Shown: piece by piece, positions 4,190-54,987 of the stretch
How positions within the stretch are numbered: the stretch's first letter is position 1
Layout of the letters: every line of letters begins with the position of its first letter
Virus record (IMG/VR): IMGVR_UViG_3300042946_001661
Span: 1-64,000 of that record
From: a virus
DNA: 64,000 nucleotides
Direction: 5' to 3' (one strand)
The notes under the pieces: model-generated
What the model saw: the letters and a program-made list of their open reading frames with translations, nothing else
What the model was told of the DNA's origin: nothing
The model's database searches: none
Made by a program: the position numbers and the translations under genes

Positions 4190-6229
4190 ATGGGTGAATT
4201 AATAAAAATCTCGGATAGCGAAAAGACTATTCCTACAAAAAAATACCCATATGCAAAATGGGATTTTGATAGCTTTAATATAGTCCAATCAACACTTTTG
4301 GATTATTATGAAAAAGATATCAATGGAATTGTTGCCGCAAACACAAGTGCCGGTAAAACGGTATGTTCTGAACTTTTCCTAGCACACGAGATTAGAAAAC
4401 GTGGAGGAAAAGGAATGATGCTGGTGCCTATTAAGGCGTTGGCACAAGAAAGATATGATGATTGGACCAATGAAAATCATCATTTCGGTGATTTAAAAAC
4501 CGTTATCTGTACTGGCGATTACAAGTCTTCTAAAGATGAGGACTTGAATGATGCAGATTTAATAATAATGACTTCCGAAATGCTTAACAGCAAAAGTAGG
4601 AATAAAAAAAATGAATTTATTAAGTCTGTGAAGACACTTGTTATAGATGAAAGCCATCTAATAACAACCCCCGGTCGGGGCGATCATCTTGAAGTTGGAT
4701 TAATTAATTTTTGTGAATTAAATCCAGATGCAAGAATCATTTTGCTTTCGGCAACAATGCCGAATGTTGATGAAATTGCAAATTGGATTCGTCAATTAAT
4801 GCCAAACAAAGACTGTTTTATATTAAACAGTAAGCATCGACCATGTCCACTAAATGTTCATTATGAAATATATTCTGATGGAGCAAAAAACTATGATAAA
4901 AATGAAATGGAAAAAGTTAACAAATCTATTGATATTGTGAACTACTATCCAGATGATAAATTTATCATTTTTGTTCATACTAAAAAAACAGGAGAAAACA
5001 TAAAAAATTATCTCTTAAAAGAAGGCATAGAAACAGAATTTCACAATGCCAATCTAGAAAAAGATAAAAGAGTTAAGTTAGAGGATCGTTTTAAAAATGA
5101 TCCAAAATTTAGAGTAATAGTAGCAACTTCCACTCTTGCTTGTGGGTTAAATCTTCCCGCTCGCAGAGTAATTATTGCTGGCATTCATCGAGGCTTACAA
5201 GAAGTTGAAACATACAATATCATTCAAATGTGTGGCAGGGCTGGGCGTCCAAGATTTGATAAAATGGGGGATGCATATATCCTATTGCCAGAATCTACTT
5301 TTGAACAACACAAAGATAGACTAAGAAAAAAAGAAAAAATAGAATCGCAATTATTGAAAAATGATTATGGTCATTATAAAGTTCTTGCTTTTCATTTAGT
5401 AAATGAAATTAATAATAAATCTATAAAGACCACAGAGGATATATACGATTGGTATAAAAAGACTCTTTGTAATTTTCAGTCTAAAAATTTAAACACAAGC
5501 ATTCTTGAAAAAACAATAGATTCTCTTGTAAAAAGAGGAGTAATTTATAATTTTGAAGATCAATGGAAAACAACAATTGTTGGCAAAATATCTAGCATGT
5601 ATTATTATGCCCCTTTTGATGTTGCTGATTTAAAAAATAATTTAAAAATAGTTGCTGAGAATAATCTTTTTGACAATGATTATGTATTATCGTTTTTGTT
5701 AGGAAATGTTGATTCCTACAGAAGTGGAATAGTATCTAAAGCTGAAAAAGAGGAAATATCTCTATACACTTCAAGAGTAGAAGGTCACCTAAAAGATTGT
5801 AATTTAAAAATATTTAAAACAGATCCTGTGTTTAAATATGGAAGTTGCTATTACAATCTTCTAAATGGACTAAATAGTCAAAATATGAGTTCCATGTTAA
5901 GAAATATACAGATGGATTTCCCTAGAACTTTAGAAGTATTAAAACAAATAAATACAATGGATCTAAAGGAAAACATTAAGCAAGATTTAGAGGTGTTAGG
6001 TTTAAGAATTCAAAATGGAGTTCCAAAATATCTTGTTGGACTGTGTAGAATCAAAAATATTGGCAAGCAAAGAGCTAAAAAATTATATGAATCCAATATC
6101 AAAGATATAAACTCTGTTATAAACACTCCTTTGCAAAAACTAAAAGTTTTATTAAATCTAAAAGAAGATGTAGTAAAAAATATGATAGAAGATGCAAAAA
6201 AATTATCTGCGGAAGAGATTCTTATTTAA
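4190..6229 (+). CDS. Ski2/Hel308-like SF2 DNA helicase
   Basis: ANTSAGKT, DESH, LSAT, TSTLACGLNLPA, QMCGRAGRP motifs; C-terminal HhH (IKNIGKQRAKKL). Confidence 0.9.
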   Translation: MGELIKISDSEKTIPTKKYPYAKWDFDSFNIVQSTLLDYYEKDINGIVAANTSAGKTVCSELFLAHEIRKRGGKGMMLVPIKALAQERYDDWTNENHHFGDLKTVICTGDYKSSKDEDLNDADLIIMTSEMLNSKSRNKKNEFIKSVKTLVIDESHLITTPGRGDHLEVGLINFCELNPDARIILLSATMPNVDEIANWIRQLMPNKDCFILNSKHRPCPLNVHYEIYSDGAKNYDKNEMEKVNKSIDIVNYYPDDKFIIFVHTKKTGENIKNYLLKEGIETEFHNANLEKDKRVKLEDRFKNDPKFRVIVATSTLACGLNLPARRVIIAGIHRGLQEVETYNIIQMCGRAGRPRFDKMGDAYILLPESTFEQHKDRLRKKEKIESQLLKNDYGHYKVLAFHLVNEINNKSIKTTEDIYDWYKKTLCNFQSKNLNTSILEKTIDSLVKRGVIYNFEDQWKTTIVGKISSMYYYAPFDVADLKNNLKIVAENNLFDNDYVLSFLLGNVDSYRSGIVSKAEKEEISLYTSRVEGHLKDCNLKIFKTDPVFKYGSCYYNLLNGLNSQNMSSMLRNIQMDFPRTLEVLKQINTMDLKENIKQDLEVLGLRIQNGVPKYLVGLCRIKNIGKQRAKKLYESNIKDINSVINTPLQKLKVLLNLKEDVVKNMIEDAKKLSAEEILI

Positions 6230-14979: not shown

Positions 14980-15858
14980 TTATTTCTTTTTAACATCAAT
15001 ATACCTGTCTGGAACCTTGTTTTCTTTTAGTTCCTTAAACAGGTCTCTACAATATCTATTGTATGTGTTATTAAAATCTTCAGGAGTAAACTTGTAAATA
15101 AATCCTAGTGAGTCCTCTTTTGTTTTGTTGCTATTCATGAAATTCAAAAATTTATTTTCTCCAAACTCTTTCTTTAACATTAAACATAAAATCAAAGACT
15201 TAATATCAAAATCTTTTTTTTCTTCAATTTTCATCTTTTTTAATTTTTCTTCATCAATAGAAAACAACTTTGTTACTTTAGACTCTAAGTTTACATCTTC
15301 TCTTTTTATATTTTTAATATTATTTATTGATTTATTTAATAAAGACATTCCATTCATCAAAACTAAATTATATTTAAGATTATTTTTATAATTAAGTTCT
15401 ATAAGCGAGCACATTGTAACAAAATAAGGAACTTCATCGACCAAATCTTCTTCCGAGTCTATTAAAAGCCAAACGACTAGAATCTCTAATTCATCTTTAT
15501 TTTTTCTAATTTCATATTTAGACTCTGTTAAGTTGAATAATTTTTTAAATAGCTCCTTGTTTGGAACAACCATTATTCTACACTCTTTTTCAAATTTAAA
15601 CTTATTTAAACCCCATCTTTTTAAACACCAAGATCTTATATTTTCTATATTTGAATATAACCATTTTCCTTGAGTGTTATCAATACTTAAAATTGTAAAA
15701 TTTTCAGTTGTGTATCTGTTCCAAGTTAAATCTTTAAAATCATCTTTAGCAACAGAGCTAATCTGATCCGATGGAGTAATTATTTCATCTTGACTAAATG
15801 CTGAAAAAGCAAAAAAAGATGCAAACAATATTATAAAAATTTTCATTTTAAACCTCAT
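14980..15858 (-). CDS. Exported hypothetical protein with signal peptide
   Basis: Hydrophobic N-terminus ending AFS-Q. Confidence 0.7.
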   Translation of the reverse strand: MRFKMKIFIILFASFFAFSAFSQDEIITPSDQISSVAKDDFKDLTWNRYTTENFTILSIDNTQGKWLYSNIENIRSWCLKRWGLNKFKFEKECRIMVVPNKELFKKLFNLTESKYEIRKNKDELEILVVWLLIDSEEDLVDEVPYFVTMCSLIELNYKNNLKYNLVLMNGMSLLNKSINNIKNIKREDVNLESKVTKLFSIDEEKLKKMKIEEKKDFDIKSLILCLMLKKEFGENKFLNFMNSNKTKEDSLGFIYKFTPEDFNNTYNRYCRDLFKELKENKVPDRYIDVKKK

Positions 15859-15892
15859 ATATTTAATAATAGAGAAAAAACAATTTATATTT

Positions 15893-21240: not shown

Positions 21241-21321
21241 ATTATGGAGCACTGTTTGGTATTGATCAGCCAAATTACCAAGGTATAAAATGCTCAATAA
21301 CCAAAAAAATAAAAAACTAAG

Positions 21322-21403
21322 CACAAGAGATAGGACTCGAACCTATAGTTGCTTTTGGCGGAAGATTAACAATCTTCTGGGTCTACCATTCCCCCACTCT
21401 TGT
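21322..21403 (-). tRNA. tRNA with GTT (Asn) anticodon and long variable arm; CCA not encoded
   Basis: Acceptor ACAAGAG/CTCTTGT, D-arm GGG..TGGTAGA..CCC, anticodon stem GAAGA/TCTTC with loop TTGTTAA, 14-nt variable region, T-arm ATAGG-TTCGAGT-CCTAT, G73. Confidence 0.88.
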
Positions 21404-21476
21404 GTGATTGTAAACTATTAATACTTTCAAAAGCGTCTGAATTTAAAGCTCAAAAAAGCCTGGAAATTTATTTAAA

Positions 21477-21752
21477 TCACTTAGCTCTATATTCTCCCCA
21501 GACTGCTTCCCATTCATCTGTTTTGGGCATTAACATAGCATCTATGTCAACTTTATCTGGATCTATGCCTGGTCCGTATGGGCTTGGTGAGTATTCCTTT
21601 TGTAGTTTTTTGATCATAGCATCTGCTATGTTGTCGTAATGATTTTGAATTGCAAGATTTATAATCTTATTTGAAAACATCAATGTAAAAAATATCAAAA
21701 AACTAAGAATCAATATAACCCAAACTAATTTTTTATCTAATAAGTCTTTCAT
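21477..21752 (-). CDS. Membrane-anchored hypothetical protein
   Basis: N-terminal TM; AAGGAG SD. Confidence 0.7.
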   Translation of the reverse strand: MKDLLDKKLVWVILILSFLIFFTLMFSNKIINLAIQNHYDNIADAMIKKLQKEYSPSPYGPGIDPDKVDIDAMLMPKTDEWEAVWGEYRAK

Positions 21753-21784
21753 TTTTTCTCCTTAATAATATTATAGTAGAATGT

Positions 21785-22342
21785 TTAGTTTTTAGGACAA
21801 AGTTTACAAATTATTTGATTTGAGGTAATAAATGGTTTTTTCTCAATTAAAAAAATATCTTCTCCAAGTTTATCTATAAACTTGTTCATCAACTCAAATC
21901 CTTTTTCTTTATTTGATAATTCTCTATTTGATTTAAATTTTAAAGTTATTTGTAGTTTTTTACCATTTTTTAAAAATTCTTTAGCATGATTTATTTTTGT
22001 GTTTAAATCGTGTTCTTCTATGCATGATTTAAATCTTATTTCTTTTGATTCTAGTGCTTTTGAATTTTTTTTCTTATCTTTTTCTTTTATTTTTTCTTGA
22101 TATGAGTACTTTTGATAGTCTAGAATATGGCAGACAGGGGGTTTTGCATTAGGTACAATTTCAACTAAATCTAAGCTTTTTTCTTGAGCAACACGAACAG
22201 CAGAATCAAGGCTCATAACTCCAAGTTGCTGTCCCTCAAAAATTACCCTTATAGGGCTGATTTTAATAGCATAATTGATTCTATGCTTAGGAAGAGGTTT
22301 GTTGGAAGAAAACCCAAATTTATTTCTGTACTTGTAACTCAT
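21785..22342 (-). CDS. infC: Translation initiation factor IF-3
   Basis: RIN..I...IRVI..GQQLGVM, LDLVEI.PNAKPPVCHI.DY.K..Y, KEIRF...IEEHDL..KI..A.EFL..G. Confidence 0.95.
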   Translation of the reverse strand: MSYKYRNKFGFSSNKPLPKHRINYAIKISPIRVIFEGQQLGVMSLDSAVRVAQEKSLDLVEIVPNAKPPVCHILDYQKYSYQEKIKEKDKKKNSKALESKEIRFKSCIEEHDLNTKINHAKEFLKNGKKLQITLKFKSNRELSNKEKGFELMNKFIDKLGEDIFLIEKKPFITSNQIICKLCPKN

Positions 22343-22387
22343 TTATAATAATAAAAGTGTGTTGTTAAAATTATTATAGAGTAAAAG

Positions 22388-23023
22388 CTAGTAAGTTTCA
22401 AGGTTGTTATCCAAAATATTGATAAATATTCCTTCTTTCTCTTCAGGATATTTTCTACTAGAGATGATCTCATCATCTTCGTTTTTTTCTATAACTTTAA
22501 ATTCAAGATAATACTCTCCTGGAACCCGTGTGTCATCCAAGAACCAATTGTAAACCAAATAGCTTTCTACTAAAACGTTTTGTTCGACCGTTCCATTTAG
22601 CTTTATAACATCTTCACGAACTAAGTCGTAAGTCGCACTAGAGTTCATTATTTTTATAATTTTTATATTAGTTCCTTTTTTCCAACTAGCCGGCGTAGTG
22701 CTGAAATAACCTCTAGTTACCATAATGCTGTTGTTTATTATTGTGGAAACCTGCATTAATTCATGATTGGTGCTATTTTTAAACAGAATAATATCATCTG
22801 GAACAACGGAGCTAAGACCTACGTTATCTGCTAGAAGTATTTCAAACTCACTATCGTCTATATCTTTTTTAAGCTTTGCGTCCGCCCACATACTGGCTGT
22901 TATTTCTTTACCTGTTAAGTCTATTGGGCTCATATCACAATCATATATTTTAAGCCTAACAGAGGGTTGTGTGCTATTTCTTTTTATAATGAAATCATAT
23001 TCATATTTTTTGCAGTTTGCCAT
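22388..23023 (-). CDS. BppU-like baseplate/tail-associated protein
   Basis: F.IKRN.T.P, DLTG, YNW...DT..PG.Y..EF pattern. Confidence 0.6.
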   Translation of the reverse strand: MANCKKYEYDFIIKRNSTQPSVRLKIYDCDMSPIDLTGKEITASMWADAKLKKDIDDSEFEILLADNVGLSSVVPDDIILFKNSTNHELMQVSTIINNSIMVTRGYFSTTPASWKKGTNIKIIKIMNSSATYDLVREDVIKLNGTVEQNVLVESYLVYNWFLDDTRVPGEYYLEFKVIEKNEDDEIISSRKYPEEKEGIFINILDNNLETY

Positions 23024-23037
23024 AATAATATATATTA

Positions 23038-23382
23038 TTATCTATTAACATTTATTTTTCTAATATCTCCAGATATTTTAATCTTACCAGATTCTAGTTC
23101 GGCAAGCATTTCTAAATTTATATTTTTCTTATAAAGAGAATGTAGGAATATCAAATCTTTATATTTTTTTTCAAGTTGCTTGAGCCACCTGTTTTGACAA
23201 CACAAACCTGTGTGGTCTACAAAATTTTTATATTCACCAAAAAATATAAAATATCTTAAAAAACACCTTTGAATTTTTCCTTTAAAGTATTTTAAAAGAA
23301 ACTTTTTATCTTTAGGTATTTCTAAGAATAAAAATCTCATTCCTATAAACAAACAATCATGATCCAAAATAAATTCCCTCAC
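23038..23382 (-). CDS. Hypothetical protein (start uncertain)
   Basis: ORF. Confidence 0.5.
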   Translation of the reverse strand: MREFILDHDCLFIGMRFLFLEIPKDKKFLLKYFKGKIQRCFLRYFIFFGEYKNFVDHTGLCCQNRWLKQLEKKYKDLIFLHSLYKKNINLEMLAELESGKIKISGDIRKINVNR

Positions 23383-23857
23383 AAAACTCTAAACACAAAA
23401 TCATCATTCCGCCTGCAAACTGTTGTGGAACCCCAGCTTTGTATAAACTTTTTAATGTTTCATTAACCATTTTAATCTCTTTTGTTACATCTCCGTCTTT
23501 TTTTGCTTTATTTATATCTTCTTGAGTTATAACAATGCATTTTTCAAGAGCTTCATATGCTTTTTGAACACCTAATATTATATTAGTATTTACAACTGTA
23601 TAAATTTTATCTTTATTAAATAAACTAGATTTATCTATATTTGTATTAGGATGTGCAGATTTTTCTTCAAAAAATAATTTTATATAGTATTCTGCCAGTC
23701 CCATAGCATCTTTTCTAAAATCATCAATAGATGATATTTCTATATTTTTTAGCAAATTAATTGCTATTAGTTCTTCTGGTTCGTCTTCTATTTCATCAAA
23801 ATCATCAAAATCATCATAATAATCATCTTCGTATTTTTCCATAATTTGTTTTTTCAT
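23357..23857 (-). CDS. Hypothetical protein with acidic N-terminus
   Basis: AAGGAG SD. Confidence 0.7.
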   Translation of the reverse strand: MKKQIMEKYEDDYYDDFDDFDEIEDEPEELIAINLLKNIEISSIDDFRKDAMGLAEYYIKLFFEEKSAHPNTNIDKSSLFNKDKIYTVVNTNIILGVQKAYEALEKCIVITQEDINKAKKDGDVTKEIKMVNETLKSLYKAGVPQQFAGGMMILCLEFCEGIYFGS

Positions 23858-23886
23858 TTTTGAAATGCTCCTTAATACATAACTGT

Positions 23887-24348
23887 ATGTTTAAAAAATT
23901 CTTTTTGGTTTTTTTGTTTTTAACTTTATTTTCTGGTTGTGGTGGAAATCTAAGTCCACGAAACAAACAGAATATAAATAATCCTAACGGAGATGTTCAG
24001 AATAATCAACAAGGGTTTTTGTTGGAATTAGGAAAAATGAGACAAGAAGTCGACATTATAGGAAGCAGATTAAGAGAAGTCCAAGAAGGTTTGATTAACA
24101 TAAATTCTGCTATCTCTAGGAATGAAAATTCAGGAATTCAAATTCTACAAGGAGACGGGGCTCTTTTTCTTGTGTTTAGTTGTGTTGCTCTTGTTTTTAT
24201 TTTCTATTACAAAAATAGAGAGAACGAAAAACTTCTTAAAACAGTTACAAACAAAATTGCTGAGATTAATGATGAAAATCTAACAAACAAAGTAATAGAT
24301 TCTGTCGAGCCTGCTCAAGCAAGAAAACTTATTAAGATGTTAAAATAG
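23887..24348 (+). CDS. Lipoprotein with coiled coil and an internal TM helix
   Basis: MFKK + hydrophobic stretch + LFSG-C lipobox. Confidence 0.7.
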   Translation: MFKKFFLVFLFLTLFSGCGGNLSPRNKQNINNPNGDVQNNQQGFLLELGKMRQEVDIIGSRLREVQEGLININSAISRNENSGIQILQGDGALFLVFSCVALVFIFYYKNRENEKLLKTVTNKIAEINDENLTNKVIDSVEPAQARKLIKMLK

Positions 24349-24362
24349 GCGGCGTCTGGAAT

Positions 24363-24548
24363 TTATTCTGAGGGTTTATTTCTTCTTTGCAATTCTTTTT
24401 TTAGTAGAGACGTTAATCCAGGTTCATTAACTATTTCCATTTCTGGCTTAACTTCTTTGAAGATTGATTCTACTTCTTCTGTGGGTAATCCAGCTCTCTT
24501 GCTGACTTCTTCTAAATCTTCTTTGGACATTTTCATTTTGAGCCTCAC
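24363..24548 (-). CDS. Hypothetical protein
   Basis: GGAGG SD nearby; start uncertain. Confidence 0.6.
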   Translation of the reverse strand: MRLKMKMSKEDLEEVSKRAGLPTEEVESIFKEVKPEMEIVNEPGLTSLLKKELQRRNKPSE

Positions 24549-24567
24549 CTCCTGGGGTCACTCGACT

Positions 24568-24801
24568 CTATCTCAGATAAAAGCCTTCACAGTTATCTGC
24601 AGTTGGAAGACACAACCTATCCGGTTCTATTTTATTTTTTTCACAAAAATGAAAAAAATCTTTAACTTCTTGGTCTATTAATTGTTTTTTTAAAGTTTTT
24701 TTTAAACAATAATAATTATTATTGTTCTCGCCCAAATATCTGCATGTTTTTGAGTTGTGTCCAGCCAAACAAACTTCATCTATTTGTTTTTTTGTTAACA
24801 T
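24568..24801 (-). CDS. Small Cys-rich hypothetical protein
   Basis: CL.G....CRYL..YCLK..DNCEG. Confidence 0.65.
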   Translation of the reverse strand: MLTKKQIDEVCLAGHNSKTCRYLGENNNNYYCLKKTLKKQLIDQEVKDFFHFCEKNKIEPDRLCLPTADNCEGFYLR

Positions 24802-24856
24802 TTTTAATAGTCTTATTTGATGAAGCGAATTTTATCAAGGCGTAAGAATTTGTCAA

Positions 24857-25087
24857 TCAAAAATTTTCAGGTTTTGAATTTTTCTTTCTTATTAAATTCA
24901 TCTCTTTTTTCTTTCTTCTTCTTTTTTCTCCAGGACTTTCATAAAATTCTCTTTTTTTAACTTCCTGAAGAACTCCGCTATCTGATATTACTTTCTTAAA
25001 AATATTCAAACCTCTTTTGAACAAATCTTCCTTTTCTCTTTGAGAAAGATTGTGATGACCATCTTCTTTTAATATTCTAATTTTCAT
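24857..25087 (-). CDS. rpsU: Ribosomal protein bS21
   Basis: L..FKK....SGVLQEVKKREFYESPGEKRRRKK; AAGGAG SD. Confidence 0.9.
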   Translation of the reverse strand: MKIRILKEDGHHNLSQREKEDLFKRGLNIFKKVISDSGVLQEVKKREFYESPGEKRRRKKKEMNLIRKKNSKPENF

Positions 25088-25114
25088 TTAAAGTCTCCTT
25101 CTAATAATAGAGTT

Positions 25115-26257
25115 TCATTCTTTTGGAATTTTTATAAATCTTGTTCCAAATTTTTTATTTTTGATTTTTCTAACATCTTCTATAATTACTTTTTTATTAA
25201 ACTCAGATGTTGTGTTCCAAGTATCTCTGTCTAAGTACGGTAAAAAATTCATTAAATTATTTTTAATATTAACAAAAATGTCATTTTTCCAAGAACTCAA
25301 ATTTCCATTAACTATACTGTTTGTGAAGTAGAATTGAATTTTATTCGGTGTTTCTATTGCTGTGTAGTTGTATAATTCATTTTCCTTTGTATTAAAGTAT
25401 CTTGTTCTCTCATCAAAAATCAAAGATGGTGTTCTTGATAATTTTGATAGCCAAGATAAATCATTAAACAAGTCTAGGGTGCATCCCGTTAGTCTTATAG
25501 AAGATAAAACTTTAGATATATCATATTCATTTACAAATATACAATCTGTTTTATTTGTAAATTCATTTGTTAAATCAAACCCTGTTGGGTGATTCCATAT
25601 AACAGGAAAAATATTTTCACTCTTCAAATATTTTATTAATTCTATATAAAAATCCTTATTAGATCTAACTTTTATATTTCTTCCATCCGCCCAAGAGTTC
25701 AAATAAATAGAAGGATGAAGAAAAACCTTATACCCAGAATTTTCATTTATTGACCTGAGGGTGTCTTTTCCTAAGATTGCAGAACTTGGAATCATAGGAA
25801 AGTTTAATATAATATCTTCGTATTCTTTCCAAAATTTTTCTTTAAAACCATTTTTATAATACAAATTAAAAGTGCTCGAATTAATTACGTTTCTATAATT
25901 TTCATTGAAGCTTCTTAATAATTCTAAATATGTTTTTGATTTATTTTCAAATTCATTTGAATTTTCATAAATATTTTTAAAAAATTTGAAATCAGATAAA
26001 CTCCAATACTCGTCTGCCTCTTTAAACAAGTGTGAGAATCCTGGGTAGGAACAGACTATAATATATTTTGAATTTTTTGTTTTATTTTTATAGTGATCAA
26101 ATAGTATTGATGAAAAAATAAAAGAATGTTTAAAATCACAAAATATAGGTATAAAAAGAAGATTGTCTAAGTCTGTTGGAACTTTTGAATCAAAAAAAAC
26201 TTCTCTTTTAAAGCCTATTCTTTCTGAGGAAACATTCAAGAAATTAATAGTGTTCAT
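25115..26257 (-). CDS. Putative GT-B (GT9-like) glycosyltransferase, divergent
   Basis: Weak: LFKEADEYWSL segment shared with the neighbour; GT9-like C-terminal pattern. Confidence 0.4.
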   Translation of the reverse strand: MNTINFLNVSSERIGFKREVFFDSKVPTDLDNLLFIPIFCDFKHSFIFSSILFDHYKNKTKNSKYIIVCSYPGFSHLFKEADEYWSLSDFKFFKNIYENSNEFENKSKTYLELLRSFNENYRNVINSSTFNLYYKNGFKEKFWKEYEDIILNFPMIPSSAILGKDTLRSINENSGYKVFLHPSIYLNSWADGRNIKVRSNKDFYIELIKYLKSENIFPVIWNHPTGFDLTNEFTNKTDCIFVNEYDISKVLSSIRLTGCTLDLFNDLSWLSKLSRTPSLIFDERTRYFNTKENELYNYTAIETPNKIQFYFTNSIVNGNLSSWKNDIFVNIKNNLMNFLPYLDRDTWNTTSEFNKKVIIEDVRKIKNKKFGTRFIKIPKE

Positions 26258-26260
26258 AAA

Positions 26261-27379
26261 TCACCAGTTCAACAATCCCTTTTTATCTAAAGCGTGTTTT
26301 ACCATATTTTTATCTTCAGTTAAATCTAAAACATAGTCCCAATTATCTTTTTTTATTTCATGTATAGACTTTTCTATAGATAACAAGCCTTTTTCTGTAT
26401 CATTTAAAAATGATACATAATTAGATATTATTATCTTTTTTTTGTTAAAATCAGAACTAGCTGCTATTCTACTTCCTTCTTGTCCTCTAAGAGCCAACTG
26501 ATCTGCGGATTCTACGAGTATAAAAGGAGTTTTTACAATTGAACTCAATCTTGTCGATGCTGTCCAGAGTTGAATGCTAAACTCTACACAACTTAATACA
26601 GCCAATGTAAATTCTAAATTTTTTACCATAGCAGTGTTAGAAAAATCAATACAATTTTCCATTTTTAAACTTGATACATTTTCTCCAAGATAAACAGGAG
26701 TAAAATCATTAGAAACCAAAATTTTATTTAATTTATAATAAAAATCTTTAGGTAAATTTCTACCATATGTTTTTCTGTTTCTTGCAAAAACAGCAACTGC
26801 TTTATTTGGAACTATTTTTTTAATTTCATTTAAATAATCTTCTTTTGGTTTTGGAATACTTCTTGAAAATTTTTTATTTTGTATATCTCCTAATAAAGGA
26901 GGGGAGATATTTTTATTACCACATCTTGGACATAAATCAAAAAAAGCATAGCTCGAATGAAAACATTTTTTACAAACATATGTGATTAAAAAATTGCCAA
27001 GATATTGACTTTTAAAAAGTATGCCTATTTTTTTTAGTTCTTTCTCTAATAAATCTATGTTTTTAGACCTAGTCCAAAAAGCATTACAAGAATCTTTTAA
27101 CCAATAATCATCTTCTTTTAATTCCCAAAACTCATCAACTAAATGTCTATAAAAATATTCCCTTCCAGTCCATCCAACTAATATTATATAATATCCATTA
27201 AAAATATTTAATAATTGTGGTATAGAATAATTACAAGCTAAAGTTTCTACTCCCAATTCACAAAAATTAGTAATAATTAAAATCTTATCTAGTTTTTTCT
27301 TTTTTGTAAATTTATAGACATTAAAACAAAAATTATCTATTTTTTTTTCTTTGATATGCTTGTTTTTAATAAAAAGCAT
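26261..27379 (-). CDS. Putative GT-B (GT9-like) glycosyltransferase with Zn ribbon insert
   Basis: ELG, HLVDEFWEL, CKKC..CPRC, R.R..GRN.P..FY, L...LAVL...S..V.TP. Confidence 0.45.
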   Translation of the reverse strand: MLFIKNKHIKEKKIDNFCFNVYKFTKKKKLDKILIITNFCELGVETLACNYSIPQLLNIFNGYYIILVGWTGREYFYRHLVDEFWELKEDDYWLKDSCNAFWTRSKNIDLLEKELKKIGILFKSQYLGNFLITYVCKKCFHSSYAFFDLCPRCGNKNISPPLLGDIQNKKFSRSIPKPKEDYLNEIKKIVPNKAVAVFARNRKTYGRNLPKDFYYKLNKILVSNDFTPVYLGENVSSLKMENCIDFSNTAMVKNLEFTLAVLSCVEFSIQLWTASTRLSSIVKTPFILVESADQLALRGQEGSRIAASSDFNKKKIIISNYVSFLNDTEKGLLSIEKSIHEIKKDNWDYVLDLTEDKNMVKHALDKKGLLNW

Positions 27380-39581: not shown

Positions 39582-39830
39582 TTAGAAAATAAAAATTCTA
39601 CGAACATTAGAATTGTTTATATCATTTATTTTTGGAATCTTCAATGATATATTCATTACTTTGTCTGTTATATCTAATCCAGAATCAACTAGTTTTAGTT
39701 TGTAAAATATTTTTAATTCATCATCAGACAACATTGACATTAAATCTCCAAACGTTTTATCTTCAGTCCATGTTTCTACTACTTTATTGTCAATACTATT
39801 AAATATATTTATTAAATTTTCAATTTTCAT
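39582..39830 (-). CDS. Hypothetical protein
   Basis: Probable start ATG 39830 after GGAG. Confidence 0.55.
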   Translation of the reverse strand: MKIENLINIFNSIDNKVVETWTEDKTFGDLMSMLSDDELKIFYKLKLVDSGLDITDKVMNISLKIPKINDINNSNVRRIFIF

Positions 39831-39834
39831 AAAA

Positions 39835-40131
39835 TCAATCTGCTTCTCCATATATGTCTTTAGCAGTTCCCATTTTTGAATTTCTTTCTGCGATTCTTCG
39901 CTCTGTTTTTGCTTTTTCCATATTGTAGCCCGCCCTGTAACTAAAACTATCCCATTTGCTAGTGTCTCCGGGCGATGTAAAAGTTGTTCCAAAACTTGAT
40001 GGAATCTTTTCTTTAGATTTACTTCCACAAAATTCACATGCCACACCCTTATATTGATTTTTCGGATCATGACTCGTTAGGACTTCATATCTTTTTTTAC
40101 ATTTCTTACAAGAAAATTCGTAAATTGGAAT
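39835..40131 (-). CDS. FmdB-family zinc ribbon protein, predicted ATT start
   Basis: (M)PIYEFSCKKC...CEFCGS; in-frame TGA two codons upstream; AGGTGA SD. Confidence 0.8.
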   Translation of the reverse strand: MPIYEFSCKKCKKRYEVLTSHDPKNQYKGVACEFCGSKSKEKIPSSFGTTFTSPGDTSKWDSFSYRAGYNMEKAKTERRIAERNSKMGTAKDIYGEAD

Positions 40132-40942: not shown

Positions 40943-41599
40943 TCAATTATTAGAGATAATTTTATTAAAATTTTCAGATAATTCTTTATAAGGAGCAAAA
41001 ATTTTATTTTTGTCCAATCCTTTATAAAAAGGTCCATAAATAAAATCAGAAATCAAATAAGCTTGAATTTCATCTTTTAATACTTTTTTACAATATCCCA
41101 TTGATAATAAATTTTTACACATATTATTAAATGTTTTTTTATCTATTTTTGATATAATTTTATTTACTTCTTTTTTATAAGAAGAATTTAAATAATAAAA
41201 AGCATGACACATTTCATGTTTATAATCACACTTTTTACTTTCATCTATTCCTATTATGTAAGCTTTTTTATCTTTTATTGTATCTTTAATATTATTAATT
41301 ATTTCTTTAAAAACTTCATCATAAACATTTTCTACTTTGTTCAATTCATAGCAGTTCTCAGCAACCTCTAGAGGAAAGTTGTAACCAGACCAATCAAATG
41401 GATATGTAAATCCATTATACTCTCTGCTATACCATTCGATGTAGTCCCATATACTAAATATTTTATTTCTAAACTTAAAGTTAGGAGATTCATAATATTC
41501 TTGAACTCTACAAAATAACATTCCTCTATCATATCTATCTTTTACAGATATCATGAACACACAAGGCTTAACTTGTTTTATTTTAAATTTAATTGTCAT
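40943..41599 (-). CDS. HExxH-containing hypothetical protein
   Basis: RVQEYYESP, WSGYN.P, HEMCH, DEIQAY. Confidence 0.65.
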   Translation of the reverse strand: MTIKFKIKQVKPCVFMISVKDRYDRGMLFCRVQEYYESPNFKFRNKIFSIWDYIEWYSREYNGFTYPFDWSGYNFPLEVAENCYELNKVENVYDEVFKEIINNIKDTIKDKKAYIIGIDESKKCDYKHEMCHAFYYLNSSYKKEVNKIISKIDKKTFNNMCKNLLSMGYCKKVLKDEIQAYLISDFIYGPFYKGLDKNKIFAPYKELSENFNKIISNN

Positions 41600-42954
41600 A
41601 GTAGTTTTATTTTTTCAGTTGTTGATATACATTCTTTTGTAGGACATATAACAACTTCTGAAATTCCATATCCAACAACGTCTTCTGGTTTATAGTCTCC
41701 ACCCTTAACTATAGTATCAGGTTTTATTGATTTAATCAAATCTATTGGTGTTTCTTCTTTAAAGCTTAAAATAAAATCTACACATTCTATTGATGACAAA
41801 ATGTCTATCCTGTCATCTAGGCGTAGTATTGGTCTATTTTCACCTTTTAAATTTCTAACACTCTCATCACTATTCAAAGCAACTACAAGTTTATCTCCTT
41901 GAGATTTTGCAAATTTTAAACACTCTATATGTCCGGCTGTTAATCCTGCATCGAAGCAGCCATTTGTAAAAACAAGTTTAAAATCTCTTTGAGATAACAA
42001 ATCTTTATCAACAACTTTAGTGTTTAAAATTTTATAAAAATCTAAATATGATAAATTAGAATTATTGTTTTTTGTTACATAAAAATAGCTTATGTTAAAA
42101 CTTATTTCTGCTGCTTGGTGTATAGTAAATCCTAAAAGGAGTCCAAGTGTTAAATAGCTTATAAAACAATCTCCTCCTCCAATTACGCTAACTTTTGATT
42201 CTTTTTTTCCACTTTCATATTTAAAAAAATTATTTTCATGATCCATTCCATAAAAACCATTATAGGAATCTGTTATCAGTACATTTTTACAGTATAAATT
42301 TTCTTTAAAATATTTACATTGTAAAAATGGATCTTTTTGTTTACTTAAACTTAACGCCTCACTTCTATTTGGCTTAAATACATCGCAATTTATCCATTTT
42401 TCTAGTGGTCCGTGTTTAGGATCTACAATTGATAGTGCATATTTATAATTAATATTATTTGAAAAAACTCCTTTAGAATAATCAGAAAAAATGCAAGCAT
42501 CTGCCCCACTATTTTTCAATCTCTTCAATAGTTTGTCTTGATAAAAACCTATATTCTCTATTCCGAAATTATTTTGTTCTACATCCCATCTAAACAAAGG
42601 AAATGAATTGTTATAAAATCTTTTTTTTCTTGGAATTTTATTTGGATGAGGTATGACTATGCAGCTTTCAACATCTATTTTATTTTTTACATATTGTTCG
42701 TATGCAAAACCATCAAGAAGACTATAGAACAATACTTTTATATTATTAAAATTTAATAATTGTCTACAAACATTTCCTGCTCCTCCTGGTAGTATTGTTT
42801 CTGGATCATCACTTGCTGTTAAACTTACTGGGATAGGAAACTCTGGGCTGATTCTATTACTCACCACATTATAGTATTCATCAAGAATACTATCTCCGAA
42901 AACAGCTATTTTAAGATTAGATTTTCTAAGTTTATTAAAAAATTCTTGAATCAT
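41596..42954 (-). CDS. hldE: Bifunctional heptose-7-phosphate kinase / heptose-1-phosphate nucleotidyltransferase
   Basis: GD..LDEY, RISPE.P, GGAGNV, SDY.KG, VDPK, KPN..E; FTNGCFD..GH, LNSD.SV..LKG..RP, KGGDY, STT. Confidence 0.92.
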   Translation of the reverse strand: MIQEFFNKLRKSNLKIAVFGDSILDEYYNVVSNRISPEFPIPVSLTASDDPETILPGGAGNVCRQLLNFNNIKVLFYSLLDGFAYEQYVKNKIDVESCIVIPHPNKIPRKKRFYNNSFPLFRWDVEQNNFGIENIGFYQDKLLKRLKNSGADACIFSDYSKGVFSNNINYKYALSIVDPKHGPLEKWINCDVFKPNRSEALSLSKQKDPFLQCKYFKENLYCKNVLITDSYNGFYGMDHENNFFKYESGKKESKVSVIGGGDCFISYLTLGLLLGFTIHQAAEISFNISYFYVTKNNNSNLSYLDFYKILNTKVVDKDLLSQRDFKLVFTNGCFDAGLTAGHIECLKFAKSQGDKLVVALNSDESVRNLKGENRPILRLDDRIDILSSIECVDFILSFKEETPIDLIKSIKPDTIVKGGDYKPEDVVGYGISEVVICPTKECISTTEKIKLL

Positions 42955-45612: not shown

Positions 45613-47268
45613 TTATGATTCACAACTTGAACAGGTTAAAATAGATCTGGCTAATTCTTGGGCTGGGTTTGCACTTCTTTGATAGTAGAAAGTTTTAATC
45701 CCCATCTCCCAACCCTCTATTAATAGGGAATTAACTTCCTTTGGAGGTGTGTTAGGAGGAATCATTAAGTTTAAAGATTGAGACTGGTCGATGTATTTTT
45801 GTCTTTGAGAAGCTTGGATGACTATTTCTTTTTGACTAATTTCTCCAAAAGTCTTAAAAACATCTTTTTCTTCTTGGGTAAGAAAATCTAAATGTTGTAC
45901 TGATCCACCTCTAATCAAGATAGTCTTCCATGTATCATCATTATGTTGATCATATTTTTTAAGAATTTCTTTCAAATATGGATTTTTATAAGTAAACTTT
46001 CCTTTTGCAAGATTTTTAACAAAATAGTTACTATTTAAAGGCTCTATACTGGGGCTTACCTGCCCTAGTATAAAGCTACTTGAAGTTGTAGGGGCAACAG
46101 CCAAAGTGGTCACATTTCGTCTACCATAGCCTTTAAGAAGATCTGGTTCTCCGTATTCCTTAGCCATATCTTCTGTAGCCTTATCTGCTCTTTGTCTAAT
46201 AGTTTTCCAAATTTCAACATTAAGAAGCTTGGCTTGCATCGACTCGAATGCAATCATTTTAGATTGCAAAAATGAATGCCAACCTAAAACGCCCATCCCT
46301 AATGCTCTTTGGTTTTTTGCGAAATTATGGGCAGCCTCCATATATTTCACACCTTCAGTTTTTTGAACAAATTCCTCATTAACAGCATCAAGAAAATAAA
46401 CCAATGTTTCTACAGCATCGGTATCTTTGATTTCATCCCAATGAAGTAAATTAAGACTGGATAAAACACATACAAAAGAGTTGTTTTCATCAGATACAAG
46501 ACTTATTTCAGAGCACAAATTACTACTTTTTATCTTTAGTTTATTATCTTTATAAACTTTTGGTGCTGCTTTGTTTACATTATCAGTAAACATTATATAA
46601 GGATAACCTGTTTCAAATCTTTTCTGTATTACTTTAGCCCAAATTTTTCTTTTGTCTTTGTCTCCATCAACAAGATCTTTCATGAATTTATCAGTAACAG
46701 TAACACCAATACTCATATTTTGAATAGAATGTCCTTCAGATCTAATCTGGAGGAACTCTTCGATATCGGTGTGCTCTACAGGAAGATAAGCTGCAAAACT
46801 TCCTCTGCGTGCTGACCCTTGACTAACTACATTTGCAACCTTGTCAAATATTTCCATAAAATGAACAGCACCACTAGATTCTCCGCCAACACTAATAGGA
46901 GTCCCTCTGGCTCTTAGATCTCCGAAATATCCGCTGGTTCCTCCTCCTAATTTAGACATCATTCCCACTTCAGCAGTTTTAGTGAGAATAGACTCCATAG
47001 TATCAGATACATGCGAGTTAAAACAACTTACAGGCAATCCTCTTTTATTTCCAAAATTGGTCCATATTGGTGTTGCAAGACTATAAAAGCCTTTTGACAT
47101 ATAGTTTTGGAATTTTTCAGAAAATCCTTTTATTTTAAGTATTTTCTCTGCATTGTCTGCTATTTGTTTGATTCTTTCTTCAGGTGATACACCTTCTTCC
47201 AGGTAACCTCTTTCGAGAAATAATCGACTATGGGAATTGAGCCAATAATAATCTTTGTTTGCTGTCAT
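45613..47268 (-). CDS. nrdA: Class I ribonucleotide reductase alpha subunit (no ATP cone)
   Basis: TP, PVSCF, GGG, SNLCSE, APT.SSS, YY, C-terminal CSSC. Confidence 0.96.
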   Translation of the reverse strand: MTANKDYYWLNSHSRLFLERGYLEEGVSPEERIKQIADNAEKILKIKGFSEKFQNYMSKGFYSLATPIWTNFGNKRGLPVSCFNSHVSDTMESILTKTAEVGMMSKLGGGTSGYFGDLRARGTPISVGGESSGAVHFMEIFDKVANVVSQGSARRGSFAAYLPVEHTDIEEFLQIRSEGHSIQNMSIGVTVTDKFMKDLVDGDKDKRKIWAKVIQKRFETGYPYIMFTDNVNKAAPKVYKDNKLKIKSSNLCSEISLVSDENNSFVCVLSSLNLLHWDEIKDTDAVETLVYFLDAVNEEFVQKTEGVKYMEAAHNFAKNQRALGMGVLGWHSFLQSKMIAFESMQAKLLNVEIWKTIRQRADKATEDMAKEYGEPDLLKGYGRRNVTTLAVAPTTSSSFILGQVSPSIEPLNSNYFVKNLAKGKFTYKNPYLKEILKKYDQHNDDTWKTILIRGGSVQHLDFLTQEEKDVFKTFGEISQKEIVIQASQRQKYIDQSQSLNLMIPPNTPPKEVNSLLIEGWEMGIKTFYYQRSANPAQELARSILTCSSCES

Positions 47269-52513: not shown

Positions 52514-53575
52514 ATGATAGAAATAACCAATGAGCAAAAAGATGTCATTAGAGGAGTTTTAAAAGATTTAAAAAACAAACAATACGTCACACTGGGTGGT
52601 TATGCTGGGACTGGTAAAAGCACAATAATAAACATACTTAAAAACAAATTAAGTAATTTTGCAGTAGGAGCATACACAGGAAAAGCTGCAAATGTTTTGC
52701 GTCTTAAAGGAATGGGTGATGCCAGAACAATTCACAATTTAATTTATTATCCTGTAAAAGAGGAAGAAGAAACCATTTGGCTAAAATGTCCTTATGTAGA
52801 ATTTGATGGATTCATAATTGACGAAGCAAGCATGGTCAGCAGAGAGATTCATGAAGATTTAATGAGTTATAGAAAACCAATTATTTATATTGGAGATCAT
52901 GGACAACTAGAGCCTATCGGAAGCAAATTTAATTTAATGCAAAATCCAGATTATAGACTGGAAACAATCCATAGAAATGCTGGAGATATAGCCTATTTTG
53001 CCGATCATCTTAGGCAAGGAAACTGTCCTAAGAAATTTGAATCTTCAAATAAAGTTAAAATAATTAATAAATCTATCATAGAAGATGATCATTTATTAAA
53101 AGCAGAGCAAGTAATATGTGCTTTTAATAAAACAAGAGTTTCAATAAATAATAGGGTTAGAAATTCTCTAAATCTACAAGAAGTAATAAATATAGGCGAA
53201 AAAATAATTTGCCTTAGAAATAATAGAAAGCTACAACTTTTTAATGGAATGCAAGGCATAGTCACAGAGCTTCACAAATTTCATAGATTTAGTTTTATAT
53301 CTGGCGATGCTCTGTACTCTAACATGCTTTATGATTATAATCAATTTGGTAAAGAAAAGAATGAGTTTGAATTTTTAAGTGATGAAAATCCTTTTGATTA
53401 TGCTTATGCTATCACAACACACAAGAGTCAAGGCGATAGCTTTAATTCAGTGATAGTTTTTGAAGAAAAATGCGACAAATGGTGCCATAAAAGATGGAGT
53501 TATACGGCAGCAAGCAGAGCGAAAAAATTACTTATTTGGGCAATTTCAGAAAGATATAAACCGAGTTATTTATGA
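52514..53575 (+). CDS. RecD/Dda-like SF1B helicase
   Basis: GYAGTGKS, TGKAA, DEASM, GDHGQL, AITTHKSQG, YTA.SRA. Confidence 0.92.
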   Translation: MIEITNEQKDVIRGVLKDLKNKQYVTLGGYAGTGKSTIINILKNKLSNFAVGAYTGKAANVLRLKGMGDARTIHNLIYYPVKEEEETIWLKCPYVEFDGFIIDEASMVSREIHEDLMSYRKPIIYIGDHGQLEPIGSKFNLMQNPDYRLETIHRNAGDIAYFADHLRQGNCPKKFESSNKVKIINKSIIEDDHLLKAEQVICAFNKTRVSINNRVRNSLNLQEVINIGEKIICLRNNRKLQLFNGMQGIVTELHKFHRFSFISGDALYSNMLYDYNQFGKEKNEFEFLSDENPFDYAYAITTHKSQGDSFNSVIVFEEKCDKWCHKRWSYTAASRAKKLLIWAISERYKPSYL

Positions 53576-54987
53576 CAAAACTTATTTTACAAAATGATTT
53601 TAGCTACCTAGTTTCAGAAGACAATAGTTTAAAAAGTTTGCTATCTAGTAGTTTGAAATTTAGAGAAAAAAATTATTTTCATAACAGAAGATATAAAATG
53701 AAAATATGGGATGGATATGTAGATTTCTTTCAAAAAGAAAATGGAAAGTTTCTTACTGGGTTGCTTCCAGAAATTAAAGCAGTTCTTAAAAAGAAAGATA
53801 TAAACTATGAAATAGAAGACAAAAGAACAAAAATAAATTTTTTATATGACTCTGTTGATAATAAGTTCGGCAGTAGGTGGGTTAAAAATAAAAAAATAGA
53901 TTTATATGATTATCAAGTCGATTTTATAAATCAAGTTATAAAACATAATAGAGGAGTAATATTTGCTCCTACGAGCAGTGGCAAGTCTGCCACTATGGTT
54001 GGAATACTTAAAACAATAATACCCGGAACTAAAATTTTAGTTTTGCAAAACAGACTTAGTCTAGCTGTACAAAACTATGAAGAGATATGTAATTGGGGCT
54101 TTGAAAATGTTGGAAGATTGTGGTCAGGAAAAAATGAACCCAATATAATAACAGTGGCTAATGTTCAGAGTATAATAAAAATAGAAAAACAACTTTCTGA
54201 TGTTGAAGTTTTAATTGTTGATGAAATTCACGATATGATGAGTAAACTTCCAAAGGCGGTCTATAGGCGATTAAAAAATTGTTCTGTTCGTGTTGCGATG
54301 AGTGCAACTCCATTCAAATTTGGAGAAACAGATAAAGTCCAAAAATATTATGTTAAGGGATTTTTTGGACCTGTTTTAAAAACAACAACAACAGAAAACG
54401 GTATTCTTACTACTCAAGAATTGCAAAATAGAAATATTTTATCAAAAAGTAAATGTATATTTTATGAAATAAATGATCCTAAAGATATACAATACGATAT
54501 ATATATCGATGCTGTTACTCGTGGAATAGCTGAAAATCACAACTTCCACAAAATTGTTAAAAATTTAGTTAGTTCTTTAAGTGGAAGAACGTTAGTTCTT
54601 GTCGATAGAATTGCCCATGGAGATATGTTAAAAACTTTAATGCCCGACAGTATTTGGGTTCAAGGTAAAGATAATATAAAAACAAGAAAAGAAGCAATAG
54701 AAATATTAAAAAAGAGTAAAACCGACGTAACCATTTTAGCAACACAACAAATTTTTAATACTGGCGTTAGTTTCTTTTGTCATAATTTAATCAATGCTGC
54801 TGGTGGTCAAGCAGATCACATGATAGTTCAAAGAATGGGAAGAGGACTAAGAACAGCAGATGATAAAGAAATATTGAATTACTTCGACTTTTTATTTAGA
54901 ACAAATAAATATTTGGAAAAACACAGCGAAAAAAGAATAAAAATTCTAAGAAAAGAAGGACATGAGGTAGAGATTAAAAGCTTATGA
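53572..54987 (+). CDS. uvsW: UvsW-like SF2 helicase
   Basis: YQ, PTSSGKS, DEIH, SATP, QRMGRGLR. Confidence 0.85.
   Translation: MTKLILQNDFSYLVSEDNSLKSLLSSSLKFREKNYFHNRRYKMKIWDGYVDFFQKENGKFLTGLLPEIKAVLKKKDINYEIEDKRTKINFLYDSVDNKFGSRWVKNKKIDLYDYQVDFINQVIKHNRGVIFAPTSSGKSATMVGILKTIIPGTKILVLQNRLSLAVQNYEEICNWGFENVGRLWSGKNEPNIITVANVQSIIKIEKQLSDVEVLIVDEIHDMMSKLPKAVYRRLKNCSVRVAMSATPFKFGETDKVQKYYVKGFFGPVLKTTTTENGILTTQELQNRNILSKSKCIFYEINDPKDIQYDIYIDAVTRGIAENHNFHKIVKNLVSSLSGRTLVLVDRIAHGDMLKTLMPDSIWVQGKDNIKTRKEAIEILKKSKTDVTILATQQIFNTGVSFFCHNLINAAGGQADHMIVQRMGRGLRTADDKEILNYFDFLFRTNKYLEKHSEKRIKILRKEGHEVEIKSL

Follow-up and report, generated by a model that had tools for sequence, protein, structure and literature searches.

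The first 64,000 nt of an 83.6 kb IMG/VR virus record, the window analysed here, hold genuine, intact phage copies of infC (initiation factor IF3) and rpsU (ribosomal protein bS21), whose products are interchangeable components of the apparatus by which bacterial 30S subunits initiate. The record (17% complete) is a piece of the ~0.5 Mb genome of a lake phage that recurs across lake-water metagenomes, and each gene occurs once in the whole ~84 kb. The best full explanation, in which we place roughly even confidence, is that the pair was passed on by vertical descent within a clade of ~0.5-Mb freshwater phages and that both products would be used on host ribosomes. Phage-borne IF3 and bS21 together are an already-known kind of phage gene set. 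As originally predicted, infC, rpsU and a tRNA gene all lie on the minus strand (21321-25087). They had been taken for a candidate translation-initiation module, of which the two protein genes stand, being real and phage-borne, but the tRNA is not a member and the genes do not form one operon.

The infC gene (21785..22342, minus strand) encodes 185 aa and was characterised by Pfam, PDB and clade alignments and residue surveys. Both domains are matched (IF3_N, 5.5e-25; IF3_C, 5.2e-21), alignment to IF3s of known structure spans the whole protein (PDB, E 1.6e-34), and its layout of N domain, Lys-rich linker and C domain is that of a full-length factor. It shares this two-domain family with bacterial IF3, and most functional residues are retained: the positions corresponding to E. 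coli R25, Q33, Y75, D106, K110 and R133 are all kept in the clade and PDB alignments. It differs from bacterial IF3 in having a 20-residue, aromatic/basic N-terminal extension, a histidine (His72) at the position of E. coli R66, and an R131 loop lengthened by one residue, RFRGRE reading KFKSNRE. Identity to the cellular IF3s found does not exceed 48%; a pattern-based scan of one genome each for 185,579 species gave 38-48% for the best bacterial proteins, while the 20 closest IF3s are metagenome proteins of 46-91% identity. In the IF3 tree the phage protein groups with viral sequences only, in a clade of 16 rows (SH-aLRT 95), and both IF3 and bS21 belong to old phage-only lineages.

The infC gene of E. 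coli starts at AUU, is autoregulated, and lies in the context thrS-infC-rpmI-rplT. Of 80 bacterial infC loci, 66 had ATT, ATC or ATA as their best SD-linked start. The phage gene has no thrS, rpmI or rplT neighbours; it starts at an ATG immediately preceded by an in-frame TAA codon and, as had been noticed, lacks an SD, with not a single G in the 30 nt upstream. AUU-type feedback should therefore be unable to act on it, and the escape from autoregulation that had been proposed is plausible on these grounds, the start signals themselves being plain.

A sigma-70-like promoter precedes infC (22373..22401, minus strand; TTGAAA, 17 nt, TATAAT), matching the consensus at 11 of 12 positions, and the TTGAAA-17-TATAAT arrangement recurs in the nearest relative (L003). 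Its -10 box, separated from the ATG by the 30 nt G-free stretch, is the ACTCTATAAT (22373-22382, minus) of the ACTCTATWAT motif reported to be shared with rpsU, where it reads ACTCTATTAT (25104-25113, minus). The similar motif reported near 15858 was located as the 9-mer CTCTATTAT at 15866-15874 (minus), ahead of the gene ending at 15846/15858. By count, ACTCTATWAT is at chance level (three matches against 0.77 expected; 6 of 100 shuffles reach three), but its placement and conservation are non-random: three of the five exact copies of CTCTATWAT are intergenic, on the same strand and 15-35 nt ahead of an ATG, in a record that is ~5% non-coding, and akin boxes stand at matching places in relatives. 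The shared motif reads as a -10-like promoter box. Among sigma-70-like sites in this region, the best one lies ahead of g77, the gene that follows rpsU (TTGACA, 16 nt, TG-TAAAAT at 24856..24829).

The rpsU gene (24857..25087, minus strand; 76 aa) was identified by Pfam (PF01165, 5.9e-12) and by PDB and clade alignments. It carries the clade signature KREFYESPGEKRRRKKKE, and ~13 residues precede the Pfam match, exceeding the typical bS21 N terminus. Unlike infC, rpsU is SD-led: its upstream signals (25095..25113, minus) combine the -10-like box at 25113..25104 with AAGGAG at 25100..25095, 7 nt ahead of the ATG. In L003 and L004, CTATATTAG followed by AAGGAG or AAGGA is found at the equivalent place.

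The two genes are 2.5 kb apart in separate transcription units, and a conserved opposite-strand gene between them (23860..24348, plus strand; 162 aa, hydrophobic N terminus), with homologues likewise inverted in L003-L005 and L008-L011, shows that they are not one operon. Downstream of rpsU comes g77 (24568..24801, minus), which encodes a conserved Cys-rich protein of 77 aa, followed beyond the inverted gene by g166 (23357..23857, minus; acidic) and g109 (23038..23367, minus). Both of these are conserved, with homologues in matching order in L003-L011, have no assigned function and match no Pfam or PHROG family. Just upstream of infC, g211 (22388..23023, minus), with a TATATA-type box abutting its ATG, encodes a conserved all-beta protein (AlphaFold2 pLDDT 88.6) whose matches to phage virion proteins are weak; in L004 and L005 the gene ends right at the IF3 start or overlaps it. 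Directly 3′ of infC, a gene with a TAAGGAG SD (21477..21752, minus) encodes a conserved small hydrophobic protein of 91 aa, whose homologues follow IF3 in L003, L004 and L005; weaker homologues lie ~3-4.5 kb farther downstream in L008-L010. The conserved genes flanking rpsU upstream, g380 and g372 (25115..27379, minus), give weak leads to a GT-B or family 9 glycosyltransferase fold, match no Pfam family and are not translation-related. Pfam, PHROG and atlas-type searches of the block found no further translation-related gene between or around infC and rpsU, so shared descent of the region may be all that keeps them linked in this clade.

The tRNA gene (21321..21403, minus strand), recognised by ARAGORN (anticodon GTT, i.e., GUU), by Rfam (RF00005, 53.8 bits) and by its fold, is an elongator tRNA-Asn with discriminator G73 and an unusual 14-nt variable region, and it lies between convergent genes. 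Its proposed part in the module was rejected, since none of the relatives examined has it: no tRNA occurs within 8 kb of IF3 in eight related loci, and none in ~360 kb from three relatives. Asn accounts for 7.0% of codons, and AAT ranks third in codon frequency; the tRNA is most likely a later, unrelated insertion, for elongation in an Asn-rich, AT-rich genome.

The original prediction went further and tied the pair to unusual message starts. A leaderless-looking class of genes is a real pattern at the level of sequence: of 35 TATATA hexamers near starts, 17 end 5-8 nt before an ATG, the class makes up ~15% of genes, and divergent gene pairs are separated by gaps of 12-23 nt. SDs precede a third to half of the phage genes, and many of the rest are leadered or coupled though they lack one. 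Outside the block, an FmdB-like zinc-ribbon gene (39835..40131, minus strand) has ATT as its sole possible start, with a TGA two codons upstream and the SD AGGTGA; the Pfam Zn_ribbon_8 match begins at the first position of both profile and protein (E 5.2e-7), and the homologous start is ATT in G002, TTG in G005 and ATG in G006. Against the proposed link, phages carrying IF3 and bS21 have SD-rich, SD-less and leaderless-like genomes alike; SD-rich genomes, and SD-less ones that have no leaderless signature, include carriers of IF3, whether or not bS21 accompanies it.

That the clade's IF3 has become less discriminating, and with bS21 admits leaderless TATATA-ATG and AUU-start messages beside leadered ones, is kept alive because two clade-specific changes fall at fidelity-linked sites. 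The R66 position is His or Tyr in the subclade G000-G005; it is Arg or Lys in the other 90 homologues, except for one Gln, and in all other viral IF3s. E. coli R66 touches the elbow of initiator tRNA, and R66A raises AUA initiation 1.5- to 2-fold (PMC9723500). The extra residue in the R131 loop, a proposed mRNA contact with a role in start-codon discrimination (PMC3401457), is also found in this subclade, which has the TATATA-ATG class and holds the ATT-start gene; IF3 is altered at these two sites in this subclade only. The TATAWW-box signal is 2.0-5.6 fold in the six H66 genomes, against 1.0-1.4 fold in G006 and G007, which are syntenic but have R or K at position 66 (in G008 it is 4.4 fold, from about five matches), and the FmdB-like start is ATT or TTG in H66 genomes and ATG in the R66 genome G006. 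However, all of this represents one evolutionary transition and so has no statistical weight; infC and rpsU are leadered themselves, the histidine may still bind the tRNA backbone, with Y75, R25 and Q33 intact, and the TATATA box could sit inside a leader instead. The E. coli data run in the opposite direction, as extra IF3 inhibits leaderless mRNAs (PMC9031893) and ribosomes without uS2 and bS21 translate the leaderless lambda cI mRNA better (PMC10491246). We consider a relaxed factor rather unlikely, and the link of IF3 and bS21 to the leaderless-looking genes suggestive but unproven.

Those E. coli effects agree in direction with the reverse proposal, in which an unregulated, canonical IF3 and bS21 would boost 30S-pathway initiation on leadered messages, SD-led or SD-less, and repress leaderless and AUU-start ones (host infC and the FmdB-like gene), producing a temporal change of translation class. 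Most functional residues of IF3 are indeed kept, leadered messages abound in the phage, and its AUU-start, strong-SD gene resembles an IF3 sensor, like bacterial infC; in Flavobacterium johnsoniae, 30S complex formation on an SD-less mRNA was strictly IF3-dependent, and bS21-containing subunits favoured it (PMC9976891). Such a switch would nevertheless penalise the leaderless-looking fraction of the phage's own genes unless they were expressed before IF3 built up, and the host-type infC promoter suggests early rather than late expression. We consider the switch decidedly unlikely.

A gain in ribosome capacity that leaves message choice unchanged is very improbable. In slow-growing lake hosts, late-binding bS21 would complete idle or immature 30S subunits, and IF3 would free them by displacing RbfA and hold subunits apart. 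Under stress, IF3 does release RbfA from mature 30S (PMC7145577), and bS21, a tertiary protein, joins late in assembly (PMC10491246); moreover, the phage recurs in lake water, and carriage of the pair is not tied to a single leader architecture. But the proposal is purely inferential, no assembly or hibernation factor genes were seen in the block, and the clade-specific IF3 changes are left unexplained.

Comparison of gene positions bears on whether the two genes are coupled at all. Gene order from g372 through the 91-aa gene is kept in L003-L011, an uncultured huge phage clade, in which the IF3-bS21 spacing drifts from 2.5 kb to ~9 kb. Of 15 IF3-bearing viral records, 11 have bS21, and in eight the two genes share a strand and lie within 10 kb of each other; of eight records found through bS21, six have IF3 downstream and the other two contigs end too soon. 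Two further phage lineages link the pair within 10 kb. The genes are adjacent in L020 and L023, and in the cultured Sinorhizobium phage Phosso they are 7 kb apart, and bS21 follows on the IF3 strand. The bS21 gene of G007 has a peptide deformylase gene as its neighbour. Larger distances separate IF3 and bS21 in G009 (78 kb) and G012 (19 kb). Four other genomes have IF3 and no bS21, those of the near-complete G011 and G014 and of two cultured phages, XaC1 and fHe-Yen9-03. That the two are independent or marginally useful, their nearness being regional synteny, fits this drift, these exceptions and the six unrelated genes (one on the other strand) between them, but is the least probable reading, as linkage below 10 kb recurs in three lineages seemingly separate on the IF3 tree (by rough estimate, a chance of ~6% per lineage in a 250-500 kb genome) and both genes are intact clade-wide, down to 36% IF3 identity.

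Takeover of initiation by phage IF3 and bS21 is not a new idea. Al-Shayeb et al. 2020 (PMC7162821) proposed that IF3 and S21 of huge phages, likewise uncultured, intercept and redirect host translation at initiation; IF3s from their records (LR756511, LR756504, LR756501/03, LR756500) are 38-45% identical to the one described here. That work lists the genes singly and connects SD loss to S1, not IF3; it describes neither linkage of IF3 to bS21, nor the R66H and loop changes, nor an association with leaderless genes. The annotated IF3s of Sinorhizobium phage Phosso, Xanthomonas phage XaC1 and Yersinia phage fHe-Yen9-03 are 29-35% identical; in these cultured jumbo phages IF3 has Clp neighbours (ClpX in Phosso, a ClpS-domain gene in XaC1), and no bS21 was detectable in the XaC1 and fHe-Yen9-03 genomes. 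Studies of bS21 in aquatic phages, namely bS21-encoding phages of freshwater (Chen et al. 2022, PMC9723584) and Pelagibacter phage HTVC008M (Mizuno et al. 2019, PMC6375957), proposed that it takes the place of the host protein to the benefit of phage mRNAs, and phage bS21 is incorporated into E. coli ribosomes according to work cited in PMC9723584. Those phages have genomes of up to 331 kb, predicted Bacteroidetes hosts and bS21 among structural genes, and IF3 is mentioned nowhere in PMC9723584; here, bS21 belongs to a separate clade (with the signature given above), always has IF3 nearby, and lies among genes for replication and of unassigned function.

In F. johnsoniae, bS21 governs SD reading by ribosomes, its own gene is SD-led, and SD-less initiation requires both IF3 and bS21 (PMC7797042, PMC9976891), a published precedent for joint action of the two. 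The phage differs from Bacteroidia in using SDs in a substantial share of its genes, and its bS21 scores best in the PDB against Staphylococcus/Bacillus-type bS21. Under the preferred reading, that both products are used on host ribosomes, phage bS21 would occupy the bS21 site of the 30S platform, beside the anti-SD, and phage IF3, made from an ATG-start, SD-less message under a host-type promoter, would supplement or replace host IF3. Jointly, they would keep 30S subunits initiation-competent and biased towards phage messages after the host supply fails.

The infC gene (21785–22342, minus strand) encodes an IF3 of 185 aa that is full length, with both domains present and joined by a Lys-rich linker: IF3_N (PF05198, residues 22–89; E 5.5e-25, 87.8 bits against a cut-off of 26.9) and IF3_C (PF00707, residues 98–184; E 5.2e-21, 74.8 bits, cut-off 34.8). 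Residues 19–185 align to IF3s of solved structure (E 1.6e-34). The rpsU gene (24857–25087, minus strand) encodes a bS21 of 76 aa (PF01165, E 5.9e-12; 45.6 bits, cut-off 27) with the basic, KR-rich core of the family, where KREFYESPGEKRRRKKK aligns to KREFYEKPSVKRKKK of solved bS21s. No second copy of infC or rpsU was found in the 83,588-base record. Both genes are real, intact and of phage lineage, and together with a tRNA gene (21321–21403) all three lie on the minus strand, confirming the clustering seen in the original prediction. The thrS-infC-rpmI-rplT neighbourhood is absent around the phage infC; its neighbours are phage genes without known function, with a trypsin-like protease beyond a 91-aa gene and the tRNA.

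The infC start is an ATG that directly follows an in-frame TAA, and neither a Shine-Dalgarno (SD) sequence nor any G occurs in the 30 nt upstream of the ATG, bearing out the expectation of an ATG start without SD. About 29–30 bases upstream is a TTGAAA-17-TATAAT promoter that matches 11 of 12 positions of the sigma-70 consensus, an arrangement that is identical in the nearest relative. The rpsU gene has an SD (AAGGAG) 7 nt before its ATG, preceded by ACTCTATTAT; relatives carry CTATATTAG with AAGGAG or AAGGA at the equivalent position. The ACTCTATWAT motif that the two genes share is a -10-like box. Its number of copies is what chance would give (three where 0.77 were expected; 6 of 100 shuffles reached three), but its placement is not: of five exact CTCTATWAT copies, three occupy intergenic DNA ahead of an ATG on the same strand. 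The best sigma-70-like match in this region (24829–24856, minus strand; TTGACA, 16 nt, TG-TAAAAT) would drive g77, a Cys-rich gene, and begins one base past the stop codon of rpsU.

Ten phage infC homologues were compared, of which eight start with ATG and two possibly with GTG or TTG. A crude heuristic applied to 80 bacterial infC loci gave ATT, ATC or ATA as the best SD-linked start in 66. The view that the phage infC has no IF3-sensitive start codon therefore holds. The pattern-based genome scan used to look for a host was skewed by its patterns toward Clostridia-type IF3; the phage bS21 was equidistant from three matching genomes, and an HldE-like gene of the phage was about 35% identical in each of two phyla tried. 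These comparisons singled out no host, which limits statements on SD reading and on the host infC.

The tRNA, which had been counted as part of an initiation module, is an elongator tRNA-Asn (Rfam, 53.8 bits) with a cloverleaf, a GUU anticodon (GTT in the gene) and a G73 discriminator. The GUU anticodon and G73 are identity elements for Asn. Eight related loci had no tRNA 8 kb or less from IF3, and about 360 kb of sequence from three relatives contained none, so that a role in the module is not upheld. Among codons of the record, AAT ranks third in frequency. The tRNA gene sits between convergent genes, and its variable region, at 14 nt with a stem of at most 2 bp, is atypical of class I tRNAs.

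The window comprises positions 1–64,000 of an IMG/VR virus record with a G+C content of 30% and 95% coding density under the standard code, from a phage that recurs in lake-water and freshwater metagenomes. A completeness of 17% (CheckV) for 83,588 bases implies a genome of about 0.5 Mb, as an estimate rather than an assembled length; a relative, G007, reaches 381 kb at 79% completeness. By estimated size, the virus falls among the huge phages, i.e., those with genomes >200 kb that carry initiation factor and ribosomal protein genes (Al-Shayeb 2020). Other genes of the window encode a DEAD-box helicase (4190–6229), a ribonucleotide reductase large subunit (45613–47268), a SNF2/ResIII helicase (53572–54987), an AEP-primase-like protein (57798–59081) and a DnaB-like helicase (61046–62614); these five belong to replication and nucleotide metabolism, with no structural gene among them. 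Upstream of rpsU, two paralogue-sized genes (25115–27379, minus strand) gave weak leads to the family 9 (heptosyl) glycosyltransferase fold, and the HldE-like gene (PfkB plus cytidylyltransferase; 41596–42954, minus strand) lies 15 kb from this pair. These three genes hint that the phage may have an ADP-heptose pathway.

The 20 best IF3 matches were all metagenome proteins, 46–91% identical to the phage protein, and the best bacterial IF3s found were 38–48% identical, by a pattern-based scan of one genome per species in 185,579 species. By a quick tree, the window IF3 belongs to a clade of 16 rows that are all viral (SH-aLRT 95). Scanning viral contigs with a single protein query gave no match, and the viral relatives were obtained by an alignment-based scan. 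Gene order is conserved in IMG/VR relatives (g372, g380, bS21, g77, an opposite-strand gene, g166, g109, g211, IF3 and the 91-aa gene), and insertions in the block increase with distance. As this block includes an opposite-strand gene, infC and rpsU are separate transcription units within a syntenic block. No translation-related family or fold was detected among its other genes, and no IF1 gene in five clade records.

Of 15 IF3-bearing viral records, 11 were found to carry bS21 too, in eight cases on the same strand and <10 kb away. Among eight records reached via bS21, IF3 lies downstream in six, and the remaining two contigs stop short of that point. Results outside the clade are mixed. The two genes are adjacent in the L020/L023 lineage and 7 kb apart in the cultured Sinorhizobium phage Phosso; the distance is 19 kb in G012 and 78 kb in G009. 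No bS21 was detected in four IF3-bearing phages: the near-complete G011 and G014, XaC1 and fHe-Yen9-03. The small ORFs that neighbour IF3 in Phosso, XaC1 and fHe-Yen9-03 were considered as candidates and were not detectable as bS21. Linkage in three of the five lineages carrying both genes exceeds a rough chance expectation of 6% per lineage, for a small sample in which the independence of lineages is taken from the quick tree. In G007 (C1, 143297–149800; loci L033, L205 and L010), a peptide deformylase gene (143889–144263) directly follows bS21 and lies between it and IF3. In the IF3-bearing relative G014 (C1, 160001–280000; loci L082–L087), coding density is just 84% with the standard code, and SDs are not enriched.

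Residues of the phage IF3 were mapped onto the 180-residue chain 8jsg_A, which we take to follow the numbering of E. coli IF3. By PDB and clade alignments, E. coli R25, Q33, Y75, D106, K110 and R133 are all kept, positions with functional roles described previously (PMC9723500, PMC3401457, PMC7145577), including that altered in infC362 (Y75N; PMC7145577). Two sites differ. His72 replaces E. coli R66, a residue that contacts the elbow of the initiator tRNA and whose change to Ala raises initiation at AUA (PMC9723500), and the R131 loop, a proposed mRNA contact involved in start-codon discrimination (PMC3401457), changes from RFRGRE to KFKSNRE, one residue more. Both changes are confined to a subclade consisting of the window, loci L003–L007 and the homologous proteins P0001–P0019 and P0025; all but one of 90 other homologues, and all other viral IF3s examined, have Arg or Lys at R66. 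The changes mark an IF3 variant that is still within the IF3 family.

With starts set at the first ATG, an SD-like site precedes 33% of genes and 8% of background ATGs, and with SD-guided starts the share of genes rises to about half. A further group, about 15% of genes, carries a TATATA-type box: 17 of 35 TATATA hexamers near starts end 5–8 nt before an ATG (10499/10512, 20216/20240, 52033/52052 and about 14 others), and 16–17 box-bearing genes have no SD. Divergent gene pairs have one palindromic box in common, and their ATGs are only 12–23 nt apart, too close for a 5′ leader bearing an SD to fit. Judged on these arrangements, the class has the look expected of leaderless messages. Neither infC nor rpsU belongs to it. 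An FmdB-like zinc-ribbon gene (39835–40131, minus strand) has a TGA two codons upstream, an SD (AGGTGA) and a Pfam profile that aligns from position 1, and on this sequence evidence has ATT as its only possible start; at the homologous position, G002 has ATT, G005 TTG and G006 ATG. A mechanically called ORF (39582–40070) is in the wrong frame, the real second gene being 39582–39829. A search for more non-canonical starts, using stop-to-stop ORFs in nine relatives, was too noisy to be of use, since non-coding frames of conserved DNA align too.

The box signal is 2.0–5.6 fold in six genomes (G000–G005), the same six that have His at R66. This pattern is a lead and not a test because it represents a single evolutionary event. 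Among 13 IF3-bearing phage records, IF3 and bS21 occur together in SD-rich genomes lacking the box signal (G006, G007 and G013) and in an SD-less genome (G009), and IF3 without bS21 is found in SD-rich and SD-less genomes alike (G011 and G014). Carriage therefore does not imply a leaderless-like genome.

The original prediction was that the phage IF3 and bS21 would retune ribosomes toward leaderless and ATT-start messages, and published work in E. coli points against this direction: leaderless mRNAs are inhibited by raised IF3 (PMC9031893), and the leaderless lambda cI mRNA is better translated by ribosomes without uS2 and bS21 (PMC10491246). In Flavobacterium johnsoniae, initiation on SD-less leadered mRNAs requires IF3 and is favoured by bS21 (PMC9976891). 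Incorporation of the window bS21 into 30S subunits would have a precedent in HTVC008M, the bS21 of which enters E. coli ribosomes according to work cited in PMC9723584. It seems rather unlikely that the subclade evolved an IF3 with weakened proofreading (R66 to His, with a larger R131 loop), outside AUU feedback and paired with bS21, that would enable a large class of leaderless TATATA-box genes, and AUU-start genes, to be translated beside SD-led genes on host ribosomes.

The interpretation we prefer is that the two proteins would act in initiation as spare parts and as a source of bias. Although IF3 and bS21 genes in phages are nothing new, to our knowledge nobody has shown what they do. The idea that huge phages redirect initiation with IF3 and S21 is already in print (PMC7162821), and there are good descriptions of phage bS21 (PMC9723584, PMC6375957). 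The clade gives this idea a concrete handle: linked genes, an IF3 that varies from all cellular IF3s examined at two E. coli fidelity positions and, in the same genomes, a leaderless-looking class and a start codon that goes from ATG to TTG to ATT across relatives. With such a handle, a vague takeover idea becomes one that reporters and defined point mutants can address. If proofreading by the phage IF3 is not relaxed, the pair would best be read as spare parts that sustain initiation after host shut-off. If it is relaxed, this IF3 would become the first demonstrated case of a viral factor that alters the start sites accepted by a bacterial ribosome, and a virus with such a retuned IF3 would rewrite the rules of start-site selection, beyond supplying spare parts.
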